This document shows, piece after piece, positions 7,207-34,865 of a DNA stretch of 58,764 nt. How positions within the stretch are numbered: the first letter of the stretch is position 1; the number at the start of each line of letters is the position of its first letter. The translations under genes and the position numbers were made by a program. The notes beneath the pieces are model-generated. The model was not told where the DNA came from. It ran no database searches and worked only from the letters and a program-made list of their open reading frames with translations. Source of the DNA: an uncultured Gammaproteobacteria bacterium (lineage in GTDB: Bacteria; Patescibacteriota; Patescibacteriia; SBBC01; CAIJZX01); NCBI GenBank assembly GCA_964383765.1, contig CAYLHT010000006.1, positions 1 through 58,764 of the forward strand, written 5' to 3'.

Positions 7207-7296
7207 TGGCGGAGGCGGAAGGATTCGAACCTTCGAGACCTTTTCAGGTCTAACGGTTTTCGAGACCGTCCGATTCAACCACTCTCGCACGCCTCC
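7207..7296 (-). tRNA. tRNA-Ser (anticodon CGA), long variable arm, encoded CCA
   Basis: The reverse complement reads GGAGGCG-TG-CGAGAGTGGTTGAATCG-G-ACGGT-CTCGAAA-ACCGT-TAGACCTGAAAAGGTCTC-GAAGGTTCGAATCCTTC-CGCCTCC-G-CCA. It has a 7-bp acceptor stem, a T-loop GGTTCGAATCC and the anticodon loop CT-CGA-AA. Confidence 0.9.
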
Positions 7297-24486: not shown

Positions 24487-24750
24487 TTCGTTGATTCGTC
24501 ACCCTTCGTAGCCATTTGTAGGCAAAGTGAACTCCTGCCCAAGCATGGTTGGCAGGAATTCGACTTGATCGAGTTGAATTTCGTAGGCCGCAGACGATCT
24601 GCCGCGGTCTAGTGTCCGTACTCTAGCAAAGGGTTATGCACAAATCAAGACCGGACAAAACTTTCCTTTGCTGAGTTGACCAAAAGCGAAAAATTTGGTA
24701 GATTGGCAACAGGTTTTTGCCTGCGCTGAGCGAAAAACACGCCTTCATGT

Positions 24751-24914
24751 TCCCGTTAGAGGTGGTCAAATCAATTCGATTATTTCAACTCAACGCTGTG
24801 AGCACTTTGGTCAATCTTCAGTGGGGACGGGCCCGTGTGTGGTAGCTGCTTGGCATGTCTAACGACCCATACAGGCTAGACAAGTTGCTTAATTTATAAT
24901 CCACCTCTAACGGG
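24751..24914. mobile_element. MITE-like element copy 1 (164 bp) inserted at the yebC start codon
   Basis: Perfect terminal inverted repeat TCCCGTTAGAGGTGG ... CCACCTCTAACGGG(A). Flanked by ATGT (24747-24750) and ATGT (24915-24918). Confidence 0.7.
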
Positions 24915-25637
24915 ATGTCGGGTCATTCCAAGTGGTCAACCATCAAACGTCAGAAAGCGGTCACTGATGCCCGCCGTTCGGCCGTCTTTACCAAGTACGG
25001 ACGGTTGATTAGCGTCGCCGCACGTCAGGGCGGAGCAGATCCGGCTACAAATTTTCGTTTACGCCTGGCGATTGATAAGGCCAAGGCCGCAAATTTGCCT
25101 AATTCCAACATTGACCGCGCCATTCAAGCTGGAAGTGGTGCCGGAAATGAAGGTCAGAGCAAGGATGTCGTGTACGAAGGCTTTGGTCCGGGCGGGGCGG
25201 CAGTCATGGTTGAGGCCATTACCGACAATCCCAACCGCACCGCCTCTGAAGTCCGGCAAACGTTCACCAAACATGGCGGGTCGATGGGTGGTCAAAACAG
25301 CGTGGGCTGGATGTTCACCAGTAAAGGCGTGATAACCCTCCCCACCTTGTCAGTCACAGCCGACCGTGATCAATTTCAGCTCGACGCCATTGATGCCGGG
25401 GCCGAAGATGTCCGAATGGATGATGACCACATCACCATCATTGCAGCACCAGATCACGTACAAGCGATGAAGGACTGGTTGTCTGATCGAAAACTTGATC
25501 AAGCGACAGTTGAATTGACGTTAGTGCCGACCTCAACCACCACGCTCTCCCCCGCTGATCAAGACAAACATTACGGACTCATGTCGGCGCTCGATGATTT
25601 GGATGATGTCACGAATGTCATCAGTAACGATGTCTAA
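24915..25637 (+). CDS. yebC: YebC/PmpR family DNA-binding transcriptional regulator
   Basis: MSGHSKWSTIKRQKAVTDARRSAVFTK... is the canonical YebC N-terminus. Confidence 0.9.
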   Translation: MSGHSKWSTIKRQKAVTDARRSAVFTKYGRLISVAARQGGADPATNFRLRLAIDKAKAANLPNSNIDRAIQAGSGAGNEGQSKDVVYEGFGPGGAAVMVEAITDNPNRTASEVRQTFTKHGGSMGGQNSVGWMFTSKGVITLPTLSVTADRDQFQLDAIDAGAEDVRMDDDHITIIAAPDHVQAMKDWLSDRKLDQATVELTLVPTSTTTLSPADQDKHYGLMSALDDLDDVTNVISNDV

Positions 25638-26124
25638 ACCGCAACGCACCTTCGGGATTGATCCGGGTCTGGCGACCCTCGGTTGGGCGGTGATTGAATC
25701 TGCGCATGGCCAAGTACAACTGATTGAGTGCGGTGCGATTACCACACCGGCTGGTAATCCAATTGAGCATCGCTTGCAACAACTACATGATGACCTGCTG
25801 GCTTTAATCAAACAATTCCAACCAGATCAAGTCTCCATGGAAAAACTTTTGTTCACGAAGAACGTCAGTTCAGCTATGGCCGTCGGCCAAGCCCGCGGCG
25901 TCGCGACACTGGCCGTCTCGGAAGCGGGTATGCCACTGGTCGAGTTTACCCCGACAGCGATTAAACTCAGCGTGACCGGCGACGGACGAGCAGATAAGCG
26001 TCAAATTCAGCAGATGCTCAAGTTGTTGTTGAAGGTGAAAACGCTGCCAAGGAACGACGACACCACCGACGCAGTCGCGATTGCTTTGTGTGGTGCGCAG
26101 ACCCATAATTTTTCTGAGGCATGA
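25630..26124 (+). CDS. ruvC: crossover junction endodeoxyribonuclease RuvC
   Basis: Trimmed to MSKPQRTFGIDPGLATLGWAVIE. C-terminal DTTDAVAIAL acidic motif. Confidence 0.85.
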   Translation: MSKPQRTFGIDPGLATLGWAVIESAHGQVQLIECGAITTPAGNPIEHRLQQLHDDLLALIKQFQPDQVSMEKLLFTKNVSSAMAVGQARGVATLAVSEAGMPLVEFTPTAIKLSVTGDGRADKRQIQQMLKLLLKVKTLPRNDDTTDAVAIALCGAQTHNFSEA

Positions 26125-26289
26125 TCCCGTTAGAGATTCGCGCTAAGAAAATGATGATACTCTACAATCAACCCAGTCAGTGTACACAATCCCCCGGGCT
26201 GATGGGCTCATGTGACGAATCATGGTTCGCGGGTAGGCGCCGGGCAACCCGGGGTCCAAGTATAACTATTTTATGGAATCTCTAACGGG
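26125..26289. mobile_element. MITE-like element copy 2 (165 bp) between ruvC stop and glgA start
   Basis: Perfect TIR TCCCGTTAGAGATTC ... GAATCTCTAACGGG(A). Flanked by ATGA (26121-26124, containing the ruvC stop) and ATGA (26290-26293, containing the glgA start). Confidence 0.7.
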
Positions 26290-27753
26290 ATGAAACCGCT
26301 CCACATCGCGATTCTAGCGGCTGAAGTAGCGCCGTTTTCTAAGGTTGGGGGCTTGGCCGACGTGGCCCACGCCCTACCCAAGCACGTCGCCCGTCTGGGA
26401 CATCAGGTCAGCGTCGTCACACCGTACTACAAGTTTATGGATGAGCAAAACTTGCCAAAACAGCTGGTGGGCGAGGCCGTGGTCAAACTCGGCGGAAAAG
26501 ATTACCCAGTAAAATTCCTCAAAGTTCCGCTTGATCCGGATGTCGACGTGCCGCTGTACTTCGTGTATCAATCGGAGCTCTTCAGTTCACGTCCGAATGT
26601 CTATGGATACCCCGATGATGCGGTTCGCTTTGCCGTCTTTGACCGTGCCACTTTCCACTTGTTTGAGGTGCTCGGCCAAGCTCCTGACCTTATTCATTGT
26701 AACGATTGGCAGGCTGGTTTGGTTCCAAATTATTTAGATTCAGAATTCGGTAAACAAGATTTTTGGAAACATACGGCCACCGTGTTCACGATTCACAACT
26801 TGCCATTTCAAATGCAAGGCATGTGGTACGACGTGCCCGAAGACAAACGTGATCAGGGCCGCGGCGCGCCACCCGACGATGCGAAGAAATTAGCCACTAC
26901 GAATTTTACTTTGCGCGCGATCAAGCACGCCGACCTGATCAATACCGTCAGCGAACGCTACGCCGAGGAAATACTGACTAAGCAGTTCGGTGAAGGATTA
27001 GATGGTCACTTGCGGCGCCGGCGCGATCGTGTCTTCGGCATCATCAACGGTATTGACTACACGGTCTTCAACCCGAGTTTCGATCAACACCTATCCATTC
27101 ACTACGACTGGAACTCGCTCGATAAAAAACTCCAGAATAAGTTAGCGCTCCAGCGTGAGTTCGGTTTGACGGAGTCAGCCGATACACCCCTGGTTGGTCT
27201 GGTCCACCGCTTGACCGAGCAGAAAGGTTTTGATCTGATCATGGAAATTTTGCCGACGCTGTTGCGGCAACGGGTTCAAGTCATGGTCGTCGGTCACGGA
27301 CAAAAAGACTACATGAATTTTTTTCGAAGTATGGCCAAGAAATATCCCCAACAACTGGCCGCCCGATTAGAGTTCATGGAAGGTTCGCGTGTCTACGCCG
27401 GTTCAGATATGTTCTTGATGCCAAGTCGGTATGAACCCTGTGGCATTTCCCAGTTGATTAGTCTGCGCTACGGTTCGATCCCGATTGTGCACCGCACCGG
27501 CGGTTTGGCTGAAACCATTACGGATTTTGATCCCAAAACCGGCATCGGTACTGGTTTCGTGTTTGACACCTATTCCGGGCCGGACTTACTGATGGCGTTG
27601 ACGCGGGCGATTGAAACCTACAAATATCCGAAGGTCTGGGAGCATTTGACCTGGCAGGCCATGCGCCAATCATTCTCCTGGGAACTCCCGGCGCGCAAGT
27701 ACGTCGAACTCTACCAGCAGGCAGTCAAGGAACGTCGCGATGCTCCCGGTTAG
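26290..27753 (+). CDS. glgA: glycogen/starch synthase (GT5), copy 1
   Basis: MKPLHIAILAAEVAPFSKVGGLADV is the KVGGL motif. The last 3 codons plus the stop lie inside MITE-like copy 3. Confidence 0.85.
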   Translation: MKPLHIAILAAEVAPFSKVGGLADVAHALPKHVARLGHQVSVVTPYYKFMDEQNLPKQLVGEAVVKLGGKDYPVKFLKVPLDPDVDVPLYFVYQSELFSSRPNVYGYPDDAVRFAVFDRATFHLFEVLGQAPDLIHCNDWQAGLVPNYLDSEFGKQDFWKHTATVFTIHNLPFQMQGMWYDVPEDKRDQGRGAPPDDAKKLATTNFTLRAIKHADLINTVSERYAEEILTKQFGEGLDGHLRRRRDRVFGIINGIDYTVFNPSFDQHLSIHYDWNSLDKKLQNKLALQREFGLTESADTPLVGLVHRLTEQKGFDLIMEILPTLLRQRVQVMVVGHGQKDYMNFFRSMAKKYPQQLAARLEFMEGSRVYAGSDMFLMPSRYEPCGISQLISLRYGSIPIVHRTGGLAETITDFDPKTGIGTGFVFDTYSGPDLLMALTRAIETYKYPKVWEHLTWQAMRQSFSWELPARKYVELYQQAVKERRDAPG

Positions 27754-27914
27754 AGGTTGGTGTGTTTGAATTTCGGGTTTATACTCAACCATAATGTCAC
27801 AAATCACATCTCGTGCGGGAATCGCATGGGCTCATGCCCACGGGTCAAGCGCCGATGTTCGGCCAACTCTAGCCGGGCCGGAAGTCATAGATGTATCTCA
27901 CAACCTTTAACGGG
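27744..27914. mobile_element. MITE-like element copy 3 (171 bp) between glgA and the GH57 gene
   Basis: TIR TCCCGGTTAGAGGTTG ... CAACCTTTAACGGG(A), with one indel and one mismatch. Flanked by ATGC (27740-27743) and ATGC (27915-27918). Confidence 0.65.
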
Positions 27915-29141
27915 ATGCGCTGGAGTAATTTTTTTCATCTGTATCAGCCGCCGGCCTGGGACGCGGATATCGTGCGCCGGGCGACTGATCAAGCCTACCG
28001 ACCGTTAGTTGATATTCTGGAACGGCATCCAGACGTTAAGATTACCCTCAACATCACCGCGGCGCTGGTTGAACAATTGACATCGCTTGGCTTGGGTGAT
28101 GTGCTGAAAAAAATGCGGGTGCTGGCTGAGCGTGGTCAGGTTGAGCTCGTGGGCAGCGCCGCTTACCACCCGATTCTCCCGCTGTTGCCCGCGCCAGAAA
28201 TAAATCGGCAAATTGAACTTCAAGACCAGGCTCTCAAGCACGTCTTCGGTGCCGCTTACCATCCCAAAGGTTTCTTTCCGCCGGAGATGGCGTACGGTGA
28301 ACCGCTCGACAAGATTTTGTCAGCTCACGGATACGAATGGGTAATTATGGATGAACCGGCCGCCACCGGCACCGTGGGCGATATCGACTTTACCCATCGG
28401 TACCGCACGCCCAACGGACTTGGTGTCGTCTTCCGCAATCGCCATCTCAGCGATTTCTTGTCCTTCTCGGCCGTCATCGAACAACCCGAGGTCTCAGTCA
28501 AGTCGCTGCAAGGCGACCGACGGAGTCAGCAGTTCTTAATTACCGCCATGGACGGCGAGAATCTCGGCCACCATCGCCCCGGTGTCGATAAACTTTGGGA
28601 AGTCCTCGTCACCTGGCCGGGGGTCAGCACCGCCACCATTTCCGAATATCGAAATGAGCTGAAGCAAGAACGCGTGGTCGACGTGATGGCCTCAAGTTGG
28701 TCATCGCAACCAGATGAACTGCAACGCCATATCCCCTACGGCCTTTGGAATCATCCTGATAATCCCATTCATCAGGCCCAGTGGGAATTAACGTATGTAG
28801 TGATCGAAGCGGTCAACGCTCAAACGAAAAGTCCGGCCTATGATACTGCCCGGCGATTACTCGACCAAGCCCTGACCTCCGACAAATACTGGTGGGCCTC
28901 GGCCTCGCCGTGGTGGGATAGCACCATTATTATTCGCGAAACCCAGCGTTTAGCCGACGTGATTGCCCCCCTAGAAAGCTTACCAGCCTCAACCAAGAAT
29001 AAAGTTGAACGGATTATGAAGCGCGTAGCTTCAACGGTCGAACTCTGGGAAAAAACCGGGCTGGCTAAACAACGTCAACAAACGTATTTGCAACACACCG
29101 GCGCCACGCATTTCATGGGTGGACAACAAGTGACGGGATAA
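27915..29141 (+). CDS. glycoside hydrolase family 57 protein
   Basis: Trimmed to MRWSNFFHLYQPP by comparison with the paralog MYWANFLHFYQPP. AMDGENLGHHRPG catalytic region. Confidence 0.75.
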   Translation: MRWSNFFHLYQPPAWDADIVRRATDQAYRPLVDILERHPDVKITLNITAALVEQLTSLGLGDVLKKMRVLAERGQVELVGSAAYHPILPLLPAPEINRQIELQDQALKHVFGAAYHPKGFFPPEMAYGEPLDKILSAHGYEWVIMDEPAATGTVGDIDFTHRYRTPNGLGVVFRNRHLSDFLSFSAVIEQPEVSVKSLQGDRRSQQFLITAMDGENLGHHRPGVDKLWEVLVTWPGVSTATISEYRNELKQERVVDVMASSWSSQPDELQRHIPYGLWNHPDNPIHQAQWELTYVVIEAVNAQTKSPAYDTARRLLDQALTSDKYWWASASPWWDSTIIIRETQRLADVIAPLESLPASTKNKVERIMKRVASTVELWEKTGLAKQRQQTYLQHTGATHFMGGQQVTG

Positions 29142-34013: not shown

Positions 34014-34865
34014 CTATAACGGGCTCTGGATACTTTTCAGTTTCGGGTTTGTCACCTGGGTGTACCGCTGGGTGGTCCGGATATTGTCATGTCCAAGCAA
34101 AACTTGCACATAGCGAATGTCCGTGCCGTTTTCGAGCAGGTGCGTAGCGAAACTGTGGCGCAAGCTATGGAATGTGGCGGGTTTGTTGATCCTGGCTTTG
34201 GCCAGCGCCTGTTCAAAAATCTTTTGGGCCGTTCGGGTCGTCAGCTTGCCGCCCCATTCGCTTGGAAAAACCAGGTCACGTCCTACCCTTCCAGAAATCA
34301 TGCTTTGTAAATCGCCAACTAATTTTTCAGGTAAAACGCTGATGCGATCTTTTCGGCCTTTGGCTTGCTTAATGTGAATCGTCTTTTCCGTGAAATCAAG
34401 GTCTTGAACTTTCAACACTACAACTTCACTAACCCGCAGCCCGGCGCCATAAGCCAGCCCCAGCATCAGCCGGTGTTTCGGATTCGTGGTGACGTCCAAC
34501 ATCCGGGCAATCTCTTCGCGTGACAAAACGATCGGTAAACTATGGCTTCGCTTGGCAGTCTGAATCACAATCGGCACACTTGTGCTTTCAATGTGCCGAT
34601 AGTAAAACTTCAAGGCGCTCAAACACAGGTTGCGAGTTTGTGGGGACGCCCCCCGGTTCTCAAGCGCCAACAAGAATTCCTTAATCCGCGCTTCGGGCAT
34701 ATTCACCGGCACGTCAAACTGAAACGCCAAAAAACCCTTCACAAAATACAGGTAGGTTTTGAGTGTTTTTGGGCTATAATTCCGTAGTCGCAATTCGGCT
34801 TCGGTTTTGTTGAGTTGTGAGTCAAAATTTTCCATAATAAATAAGTGGCTTTCTTGCCACCACAT
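34014..34865 (-). CDS. tyrosine recombinase, integron-integrase-like but short (Xer-length)
   Basis: Catalytic signature GAGLRVSE (R), KGRKDR (K), HSLRHSFATHLL (HxxR), LLGHDNIRTTQRYTQV (H..Y). The motifs are close to IntI1, from my recollection of its sequence (LDFDHGTIIVREGKGSKDR, ITKPATPHTLRHSFAT, LLGHSDVSTTMIYTHV, ...RSPL). Only about 58 aa separate KDR and HxxR. An alternative start is the ATG at 34835. Confidence 0.85.
   Translation of the reverse strand: MWWQESHLFIMENFDSQLNKTEAELRLRNYSPKTLKTYLYFVKGFLAFQFDVPVNMPEARIKEFLLALENRGASPQTRNLCLSALKFYYRHIESTSVPIVIQTAKRSHSLPIVLSREEIARMLDVTTNPKHRLMLGLAYGAGLRVSEVVVLKVQDLDFTEKTIHIKQAKGRKDRISVLPEKLVGDLQSMISGRVGRDLVFPSEWGGKLTTRTAQKIFEQALAKARINKPATFHSLRHSFATHLLENGTDIRYVQVLLGHDNIRTTQRYTQVTNPKLKSIQSPL

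Follow-up and report, generated by a model that had tools for sequence, protein, structure and literature searches.

What are the three short repeats that lie directly in front of yebC, glgA and a GH57 glycoside hydrolase gene in contig CAYLHT010000006.1, and how did each of them come to sit on a start codon? The contig was analysed over its whole length of 58,764 nt (58.8 kb; hereafter the window), and the three repeats fall within 3.2 kb of it. An initial annotation had proposed a mobile element that is non-autonomous, ends in inverted repeats and is flanked by a target duplication, and this proposal is supported by our analysis, empty sites having been found in relatives. The same ends also enclose a small gene for a GIY-YIG nuclease at other loci. 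Taken as a whole, the explanation that we consider probable is that the repeats are gene-less copies, resembling miniature inverted-repeat transposable elements (MITEs), of tiny GIY-YIG elements spread across phyla, with the steps of mobility and of translational reinitiation that are set out below.

Three insertions in one operon

We read the sequence between 24500 and 28200 and recovered three units of 164-171 bp, each starting TCCCG(G)TTAGAG and ending CT(C/T)TAACGGG, just as first described; no strand is assigned to them. Copy 1 (24751..24915; T24751/CCCG24752 to CGGG24914) runs from T-CCCGTTAGAGGTGG to CCACCTCTAACGGG-A, lacks an open reading frame (ORF), and its final base, A24915, is the first base of the yebC ATG. 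Copy 2 (26125..26290; T26125/26126 to 26289) runs from T-CCCGTTAGAGATTC to GAATCTCTAACGGG-A between the ruvC stop and the glgA start, and copy 3 (27744..27915; T27744/27745 to 27914) runs from T-CCCGGTTAGAGGTTG to CAACCTTTAACGGG-A between glgA and GH57, its stem having one additional G and one G.T pair. The inverted arms are perfect or near-perfect over 15-16 bp, the inner pairs GTGG/CCAC, ATTC/GAAT and GTTG/CAAC are as the annotation gave them, and the six paired CCCGTTAGAG arms present in the window (perfect or with one mismatch) all belong to copies 1-3. The ATG at the right end of each unit was correctly identified as the start of yebC (24915), glgA (26290) or GH57 (27915). The GH57 start was set by homology to relatives; an alternative in-frame ATG lies at 27891, inside copy 3.

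A 4-bp duplication of the form ATGN had been reported at each unit. The tetramers ATGT, ATGA and ATGC do flank the units on both sides, but the duplication is best read as 3 bp (TGT, TGA and TGC), because the outer T...A belongs to the inverted repeat throughout the family described below (97% paired). The terminal A of the element rebuilds the host ATG in each window copy. On the plus strand, the left TGT of copy 1 (24748..24750) forms the original yebC ATG together with A24747, and the right TGT is at 24916-24918; the left TGA of copy 2 (26122..26124) doubles as the ruvC stop codon, with the right TGA at 26291-26293; and the left TGC of copy 3 is at 27741..27743, with the right TGC at 27916-27918.

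Relatives were found by a search with GlgA, which placed the window in a Kerfeldbacteria-like lineage of Patescibacteria, and their GlgA proteins are 82, 79 and 77% identical to that of the window (contigs L117/L118, L119 and L120). These contigs share with the window the gene order yebC-ruvC-glgA-GH57-GH57-APH-glgA2. All three junctions are uninterrupted in L117, L118 and L120, with one copy of the duplicated target each: gccttcgATGTCC at the yebC site, ggccttATGAAACC, a classical ATGA stop/start overlap, at the ruvC/glgA site, and cacgaccATGCGCTGG at the glgA/GH57 site (L120). The repeat halves are absent from the empty sites. Since the orthologous junctions of the relatives are empty, the three units are insertions and not a conserved ancestral leader. 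In L119, the yebC site holds a decayed unit, about 105 nt long, between the same ATGT flanks (ATGT/TCCCATATAGAGG…CCTCTCACGGG/ATGT; L119:3674-3781). The yebC site is thus filled in the window and in L119 and empty in two equally distant relatives, which may reflect repeated insertion into a hot spot or an old insertion followed by precise loss; ancestry with precise loss and independent insertion are indistinguishable here because the four genomes are roughly equidistant (68-74% identity over four proteins).

The empty sites bear on the idea that the units are a conserved structured RNA leader, such as a riboswitch, a ribozyme or a processing signal, that does not move and whose stem is selected as RNA. 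The terminal stems of 15-16 bp are the main feature of the RNA and DNA folds and fold better than shuffled sequences (z = -2.3 to -3.2), the arms co-vary, and the units lie directly 5' of start codons, all of which would suit such a leader. The idea is contradicted, however, by the empty sites in the closest relatives and by the unrelated interiors of the copies, which resemble one another only in the short patches that had been noticed initially. Nothing in Rfam matches the elements either, in the whole window at the gathering threshold or in the region even at E <= 10. We return to this alternative with the pairing of the arms.

The host genes are all on the plus strand: yebC (TACO1/YebC family, from the Pfam labels of its orthologues; 24915..25637), ruvC (25594..26124), glgA (glycogen synthase; 26290..27753) and GH57 (27915..29141). 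The window copies are out of frame with them, and the effects of the insertions are small, with all three start codons rebuilt and ruvC keeping its stop. The glgA stop TAG (27751..27753, plus strand) lies within the left repeat of copy 3, such that the last residues of GlgA (…DAPG) have been swapped for element-encoded ones; in the relatives, glgA overlaps GH57 by 14 nt. The copies hold no recognisable gene, and no protein homology was found for them. The claim that they lack any ORF needs amending for copy 2, which is crossed by a relay ORF of 54 codons (26121..26285, plus strand) leading from the old glgA ATG, which overlaps the ruvC stop, to a TAA that lies within the right repeat and 4 nt 5' of the rebuilt glgA ATG. 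At copy 1, an upstream ORF of 32 codons (24747..24845, plus strand) leads from the displaced yebC ATG into the element and ends at a TAG 70 nt 5' of the rebuilt yebC ATG. The absence of a Shine-Dalgarno (SD) sequence before the three genes was borne out: none of the tetramers GGAG, GAGG and AGGA occurs within 20 nt 5' of the yebC, glgA and GH57 ATGs, and the orthologous empty sites in the relatives likewise lack an SD.

Ends and insertion sites across phyla

We scanned one genome per species for CCCGTTAGAG-N130-160-CTCTAACGGG and recovered at least 116 loci with the same 10-nt arms in at least 8 phyla, a spread showing that the family is not new to this genome. The hosts comprise many classes of Patescibacteria, Omnitrophota (including the complete genome of Velamenicoccus archaeovorus LiM), Planctomycetota, Elusimicrobiota, Nitrospirota, Desulfobacterota, Acidobacteriota, Ratteibacteria and one Woesearchaeota metagenome-assembled genome (MAG). 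Units across these loci range from 26 to 277 nt, and nested and tandem copies occur. The viral contigs of IMG/VR gave no match to either size class. The window copies match the family in their exact arms, T:A terminal pair, size class, duplication and start-codon position, and we hold it highly likely that they are mobile, non-autonomous members of it; they are probably old, gene-less, inert passengers. The Woesearchaeota copy (L108; JACQXV010000187.1, 1310-1482) measures 173 nt and lies at a GTG start codon on a contig that binning assigned to a DPANN archaeon; should this assignment be correct, the family would extend across domains.

The bases just outside CCCG/CGGG form a pair in 175 of 193 copies (C:G in 100 and T:A in 75), and in 97 of the 193 the four bases further out are directly repeated, mostly TGAA/TTCA, TTTA/TAAA, TTGA/TCAA or TTAA. 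The ends are best described as Y-CCCGTTAGAG…CTCTAACGGG-R with a usual 4-bp TNNA duplication. The inverted ends are 13 bp long (Y-CCCGTTAGAG-NN) and the duplication ranges from 3 to 5 bp, the 3-bp form being found in the window copies and a few others (e.g. L173 and L065). One subfamily, 78-88% identical, in a single Planctomycetota MAG has the duplications TTAGA, TGAA and TTAA; because they vary within one subfamily of one MAG, we take the duplication to be formed anew at each insertion, as by a staggered cut and fill-in. For the same reason we rejected a 'sticky-end carry-over', in which the element would retain a 4-nt overhang.

Terminal inverted repeats (TIRs) with a short duplication are the classical signature of DDE transposases, and the copies could be ordinary MITEs moved in trans by such an enzyme (IS1380/piggyBac-like or IS5-like, with 4-bp TNNA duplications and CC(C) ends), the GIY-YIG gene being a frequent passenger. 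The symmetric target consensus TNNA fits this, as do the differences in duplication within one subfamily, which imply a staggered cut and fill-in. IS1380 elements have CC ends and 4-5-bp duplications, and piggyBac has CCC ends and a TTAA target. The 4-5-bp duplications and CC-type termini of the present family agree with these traits. We attempted to find the transposase itself. No recurrent transposase-like cluster was present in about 0.9 Mb around the 116 copies, where the recurrent gene clusters among 1,241 ORFs were housekeeping only (PilB/GspE ATPases, GGDEF, ComM and pilins), and pairs of ends 0.5-4 kb apart did not enclose a transposase. A candidate for a long element with the same ends, 1,512 bp with matching flanks (L034 and L040), was rejected since it encloses gltX and a chance half-site.

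The location of the copies depends on their terminal pair. Among the outermost copies, 49 of 168 lie on the ATG of a real ORF, as do nearly all T:A copies, such that the claim that the element always sits on a start codon holds for T:A-ended copies and not for the family as a whole. The T:A-ended copies are inserted directly after the A of the host start codon (A/TGAA). Similarly, the ATGN target stands as a subset that survives or is preferred at start codons, but the general target is TNNA-like. The start-codon sites have an A/T-rich left flank, an SD-like sequence in 9 of 67 and no further conserved motif. The C:G-ended copies occupy GTTTAC/GTAAAC, GTTGAC and sites like them, which fall in pilin genes or between genes. 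Clear pilin genes account for only 6 of about 110 C:G-ended sites, and pilins are one target among several, not the rule. One start-codon subfamily in Patescibacteria (L004, L015, L029 and L114) contains a second hairpin of 48-49 nt with the same arms (CCCGTTAGAAG…; e.g. L004:3309-3357), which is nested at one constant position and lacks a duplication; Rfam has no match for its conserved interior, GTCCCCGCCCAC…GATGGCGGGTGGG.

The arms contain GTTAGAG/CTCTAAC, whose likeness to integron cores had been noted as a possible coincidence, and a coincidence it probably is. Were the units integron-related or other attC-like sites of a tyrosine recombinase, the integrase gene 6 kb downstream would have supplied the enzyme that captured or moved them. 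The similarity of GTTAGAG to the attC core GTTRRRY, the presence in the window of a tyrosine recombinase (34017-34865) with an attC-like cassette array, and the 6-bp spacers of tandem copies, which recall recombinase core sites, all speak for this. The layout of attC, with RYYYAAC 5' and GTTRRRY 3', is nevertheless not that of the element, which reads 5'-…GTTAGAG … CTCTAAC…-3'; the order GTT…AAC is opposite to the AAC…GTT of attC on either strand. The distal bases of the 6-mer spacers are often unlike and their inner 4 bp are duplicated, the attC-like repeats of the window have other arms (…CGCGTAACCG…), no integrase cluster recurs among the 116 loci, and the partner protein is a GIY-YIG nuclease, not IntI. 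We therefore regard an integron origin as very improbable. The array is an observation in its own right: the 283-aa recombinase (34017-34865, minus strand; Phage_integrase E = 4e-43) adjoins at least 12 short same-strand ORFs within 34017-54300, separated by structured repeats of 100-200 nt (…CCTAAC-AGCGCGTAACCGAC…GTCGGTTACGCGC-GGACGTTAGGC). Its cassettes include an N6/N4 DNA methylase and a HAD hydrolase, and the region at 34-54 kb looks like a chromosomal integron in a Patescibacteria genome.

A coding relative of about 275 bp

The initial annotation had called for a search for a full-length parent encoding a transposase. Such a parent exists, but it encodes a stand-alone 86-aa GIY-YIG nuclease and no transposase of a known insertion sequence (IS) class. 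Two elements of 277 nt with the same ends (L105:1206-1482 and L100:3450-3726) each carry this protein, which matches Pfam PF01541 at E = 2e-19 and 5e-16, respectively. In the alignment of the full-length members (A2), Y3, Y5, Y16, G18, R26, H30 and E50 are invariant, and the closest solved structures in the Protein Data Bank are the stand-alone UPF0213 proteins BH0048 and EF2693. Pfam finds the catalytic domain alone in the 86-aa protein, with no separate DNA-binding domain. In several ORF-less copies, about 160 nt long, part of the nuclease gene survives, either its N-terminal 17 codons or its C-terminal 26-41 codons (L079, L092, L008 and L082); these copies are internal-deletion derivatives.

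To avoid circularity, we retrieved further members independently from metagenomes by two peptide motifs outside the repeats. Among the matches listed, 569 of 600 stretches were confirmed, and the arms were analysed in the best 80 of the 569. Both arms were present within two mismatches in 70 of these 80, and a template-free search showed, in 66 of 78, that the ORF is flanked by an inverted repeat with at least 13 of 14 positions matching. Variant arms change jointly (CACG…/…CGTG, TACG…/…CGTA, …TTACAG/CTGTAA…, …TTAGTG/CACTAA… and …TTAAAG/CTTTAA…). Pairing of the arms was at least 97% at every position from -1 to 12, with several pair types at -1, 2 and 8-12 and with G.T pairs at 0%. The covariation first noticed in the window thus held in a large independent sample. 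The lack of G.T pairs, together with the variable yet matched positions 11-12, argues that the arms are identical or complementary as DNA and not as an RNA stem. It had been suggested that the stem is selected as DNA or RNA; the DNA alternative fits this identity, but an RNA stem is disfavoured by the 0% of G.T intermediates. The RNA leader considered above would also have to accommodate 0% G.T at its co-varying positions and the same ends enclosing a protein gene elsewhere, and we find it hardly credible. The identity of the arms at the DNA level may come from a dimer acting on two equal sites, from a substrate in cruciform or hairpin form, like those of Slx1-type enzymes, or from copying of one arm to the other.

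At E <= 1e-10, the nuclease family takes in at least 4,794 protein clusters; their database labels read 'GIY-YIG nuclease family protein' or 'URI-domain endonuclease', or else, in error, 'excinuclease ABC subunit C'. The full-length element is 266-291 bp long (mode 275-278 bp) and consists of two repeats and one 86-codon gene, and nothing else. The nuclease ORF opens 15-21 nt after the start of the left arm, and its final four codons, S-L-T-G, are the right arm. In 51 of 68 elements, a TGA or TAA borne by the flank follows immediately after the last nuclease codon. The element has no promoter or stop codon and often no start codon. One protein, P0168, occurs on 28 contigs and was considered as a set of recent copies at several loci; this was rejected because the same locus is present in many samples. 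One full-length subfamily (L124, L130, L132, L149, L150, L152, L154, L158 and L160) has the arms followed by ATCACAAGTC and a conserved left flank (…GCGAATNGGATTNNNNNRC) with no clean duplication; this element may be longer on its left side or may target another repeat.

All 32 distinct T:A-ended full-length copies lie on a host ATG and are co-oriented with the gene that it starts. Their right junction, …ACG GGA TGA A…, is an ATGA overlap with the host start. In 21 of the 32, an uninterrupted reading frame leads from the host's original ATG across the left arm into the nuclease; the nuclease's own start codon is missing in 14 of the 32, all of them within these 21. L189 and L180 illustrate the arrangement, with MNPVRDNKFYYTYIL…RFLSLTG* and then the host ORF, which opens at the overlapping ATG. 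The host leader and ATG are preserved at the left copy of the duplication, from which M-N-P-V-R… is read into the nuclease, and the right copy supplies the TGA of the nuclease and, with the last A of the element, rebuilds the host ATG (G-ATG-A overlap).

Some C:G sites fall on G-F-T codons in genes for type IV pilins or pseudopilins, and there the junction CTCTAACGGG-GTTTAC-CCCGTTAGAG translates as S-L-T-G-F-T-P-L-E. In L105:1206-1600 the nuclease ORF continues in frame into a pilin at the prepilin cleavage glycine (type IV G/FTLLE…), and in the database protein P0230 the nuclease is joined to a Flp-type prepilin at G/QAMLDY. We infer that the nuclease may act here as an 86-residue 'leader peptide' that would be taken off by prepilin peptidase, releasing the pilin. 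At L105:33-614, a T2SS-G pseudopilin is encoded whose N-methyl motif begins only at residue 69. Tandem gene-less copies of 78 nt with 6-nt spacing (period 84 nt, or 28 codons) lie in frame within pilin leader regions at L001:2943-3104, L051:4889-5050 and L070:5579-5740.

The pilin sites and the weak affinities of the protein raise a further alternative, a homing-endonuclease gene that spreads without an intron by double-strand-break repair between alleles, the repeats being halves of a palindromic recognition site. The GIY-YIG domain has weak matches to the group I intron endonuclease model TIGR01453 (E = 1e-7, 31.9 bits versus a 56-bit cutoff) and to a phage homing-endonuclease family; the tandem junctions CTCTAACGGG-N6-CCCGTTAGAG resemble a palindromic site, and the pilin sequence near G/FT is similar to such a site. 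Homing makes no target duplication, however, and the elements occupy many unrelated loci per genome with short (3-5-bp) duplications, both repeat halves are absent from the empty sites, and the protein has no DNA-binding module beyond its 86-aa catalytic domain. We consider homing improbable. As for a DDE transposase acting in trans, the GIY-YIG gene is the only gene bounded by the ends, and it is so at hundreds of loci; the right repeat encodes the C-terminus of its product, and the insertion site determines its start and stop codons. A gene so integrated with the ends and with the codons of the insertion site is unlikely to be cargo, and we judge the DDE alternative unlikely.

We favour the GIY-YIG protein as the mobiliser because it is the sole encoded product, its ORF is fused to the ends and no DDE gene was found around the 116 copies or between paired ends; on these grounds it is reasonably likely to be the mobilising enzyme. 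More tentatively, though only a little short of an even chance, the family may constitute a new class of prokaryotic transposable element: the smallest autonomous one known (about 275 bp), whose transposase would be a bare 86-residue GIY-YIG domain, and which would bring along neither promoter nor RBS and would borrow the start and stop signals of the host. Under this reading its insertion point would be either the prepilin glycine or a host start codon, behind the first base, with the host protein restored by ATGA reinitiation or by prepilin peptidase.

Mobility, translation and wider meaning

We propose that the GIY-YIG protein would cut the element ends and the target with a 3-5-nt stagger, and that host repair and ligation would join the ends and fill in the gaps to give the target duplication. 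At a start codon, the host ribosome would make the nuclease from the host ATG and then the host protein by termination-reinitiation. The window copies would have lost the gene and would persist since the SD-less, coupled gene at each site had its start restored by the insertion. In copy 2, ribosomes that finish ruvC would be handed on to the start of glgA by way of the element-spanning ORF; for copies 1 and 3 we can only speculate that reinitiation occurs across the base of the stem or that RNase III processes the transcript. The idea of translational coupling is strengthened by the ATGA overlap and the captured host ATG in the full-length elements and by the relay ORF in copy 2. Relay ORFs were present in 9 of about 37 ORF-less start-codon copies (copy 2, L007, L033, L039, L066, L068, L079, L089 and L098), compared to about 3% expected by chance on a rough estimate that was not computed. 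We offer translation of the host genes by termination-reinitiation as a possibility, and a somewhat doubtful one.

Several observations weigh against the explanation as we have put it. The window copies are linked to the family by 11-nt arms, size class, duplication and start-codon position; no similarity was detectable between their interiors and either the nuclease gene or the other copies sampled, and their 3-bp duplications are one below the family mode. No GIY-YIG gene is present in the 58.8-kb window, and an enzyme acting on these copies would have to be encoded outside it. About 10 of the 80 homologues are without recognisable repeats. GIY-YIG nucleases are hydrolytic and are not known to perform strand transfer, and none is known to serve an IS family. 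The near-exclusive location at start codons may reflect selection after random insertion at TNNA, not targeting, and a relay ORF is present in only one of the three window copies, copies 1 and 3 running into early stops.

The three copies all fall within 24747-27918, at the starts of yebC, glgA and GH57 of one operon, with ruvC passed over; local hopping or high expression may account for this clustering. Elsewhere in the window, the 3' end of a 23S rRNA gene (1-325) is followed by a 5S rRNA gene (585-700), and the minus strand carries a tRNA gene at 7210-7296.

The window copies are MITEs in form, and their parent fits no IS family. Bacterial MITEs such as Correia/NEMIS of Neisseria are likewise short and gene-less, with inverted ends and a short duplication, and they also share the many copies, co-transcription with neighbours, hairpin folds and derivation by deletion from a longer coding element. 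Known MITEs derive, however, from IS elements with DDE transposases, whereas the coding relative here is a GIY-YIG unit of about 275 bp, the ends cross phyla and copies lie exactly on start codons. Free-standing GIY-YIG homing genes (T4 Seg, I-TevI-type) are comparable as selfish nuclease genes in or between host genes that use host expression signals; their enzymes have an extra DNA-binding domain and a single long cognate site, and the genes spread through break repair, with neither inverted ends nor a duplication, in contrast to the bare UPF0213/Slx1-like domain of 86 aa, with TIRs and duplications at many unrelated sites, described here. The piggyBac/IS1380 elements resemble the family in the 4-bp T..A duplication and CC(C) ends, and a yebC site occupied in two lineages and empty elsewhere would fit their precise loss; they differ in that no DDE transposase was found here around the copies or between paired ends, the target is TNNA and not strictly TTAA, and the element is at least 5-fold smaller than any known IS. 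Rickettsia palindromic elements are also mobile palindromic repeats in frame within genes, like the 78-nt pilin-leader copies, but they lack a known enzyme, a defined duplication and start-codon placement, and the window copies are not in frame. The REP/REPIN-RAYT systems and the IS200/IS605-derived PATEs share hairpin repeats, including minimal forms of 26-30 nt, and a small nuclease-type protein from few master copies. Their enzymes are HUH tyrosine transposases that act on single strands without duplication, in species-specific families; the partner in the present family is GIY-YIG and not HUH (Y1), and duplications are present.

We found no description of this family in the literature, searched in full text and including the end sequences; the family is very widespread and apparently undescribed. 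A 2006 survey of the GIY-YIG superfamily viewed stand-alone Slx1-like proteins as vertically inherited and left the existence of further parasitic members open, and one 2025 paper lists a GIY-YIG protein among genes moved from Patescibacteria to other groundwater bacteria. If the family is indeed a new class of transposable element, many bacterial 'stand-alone Slx1-like' GIY-YIG genes, long counted as housekeeping, would be selfish elements. The known IS families use DDE, DEDD, HUH, Ser or Tyr enzymes; GIY-YIG would then be a sixth catalytic type for prokaryotic insertion elements, with a new lower size limit for an autonomous one. Thousands of small GIY-YIG and 'excinuclease ABC subunit C' annotations in MAGs of the candidate phyla radiation, Omnitrophota and Planctomycetota would need to be re-read, as would the mis-called N-termini of neighbouring genes. 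Capture of start and stop codons is a very economical way for a parasite to be expressed without harm to the host gene, and it offers a natural system for the study of termination-reinitiation and of translation across a hairpin in SD-poor bacteria. The pilin-leader fusions suggest a protein-level 'excision' by prepilin peptidase, in spirit like that of inteins. The identity of the 10-nt ends across phyla is a mark of gene flow among groundwater and sediment lineages.

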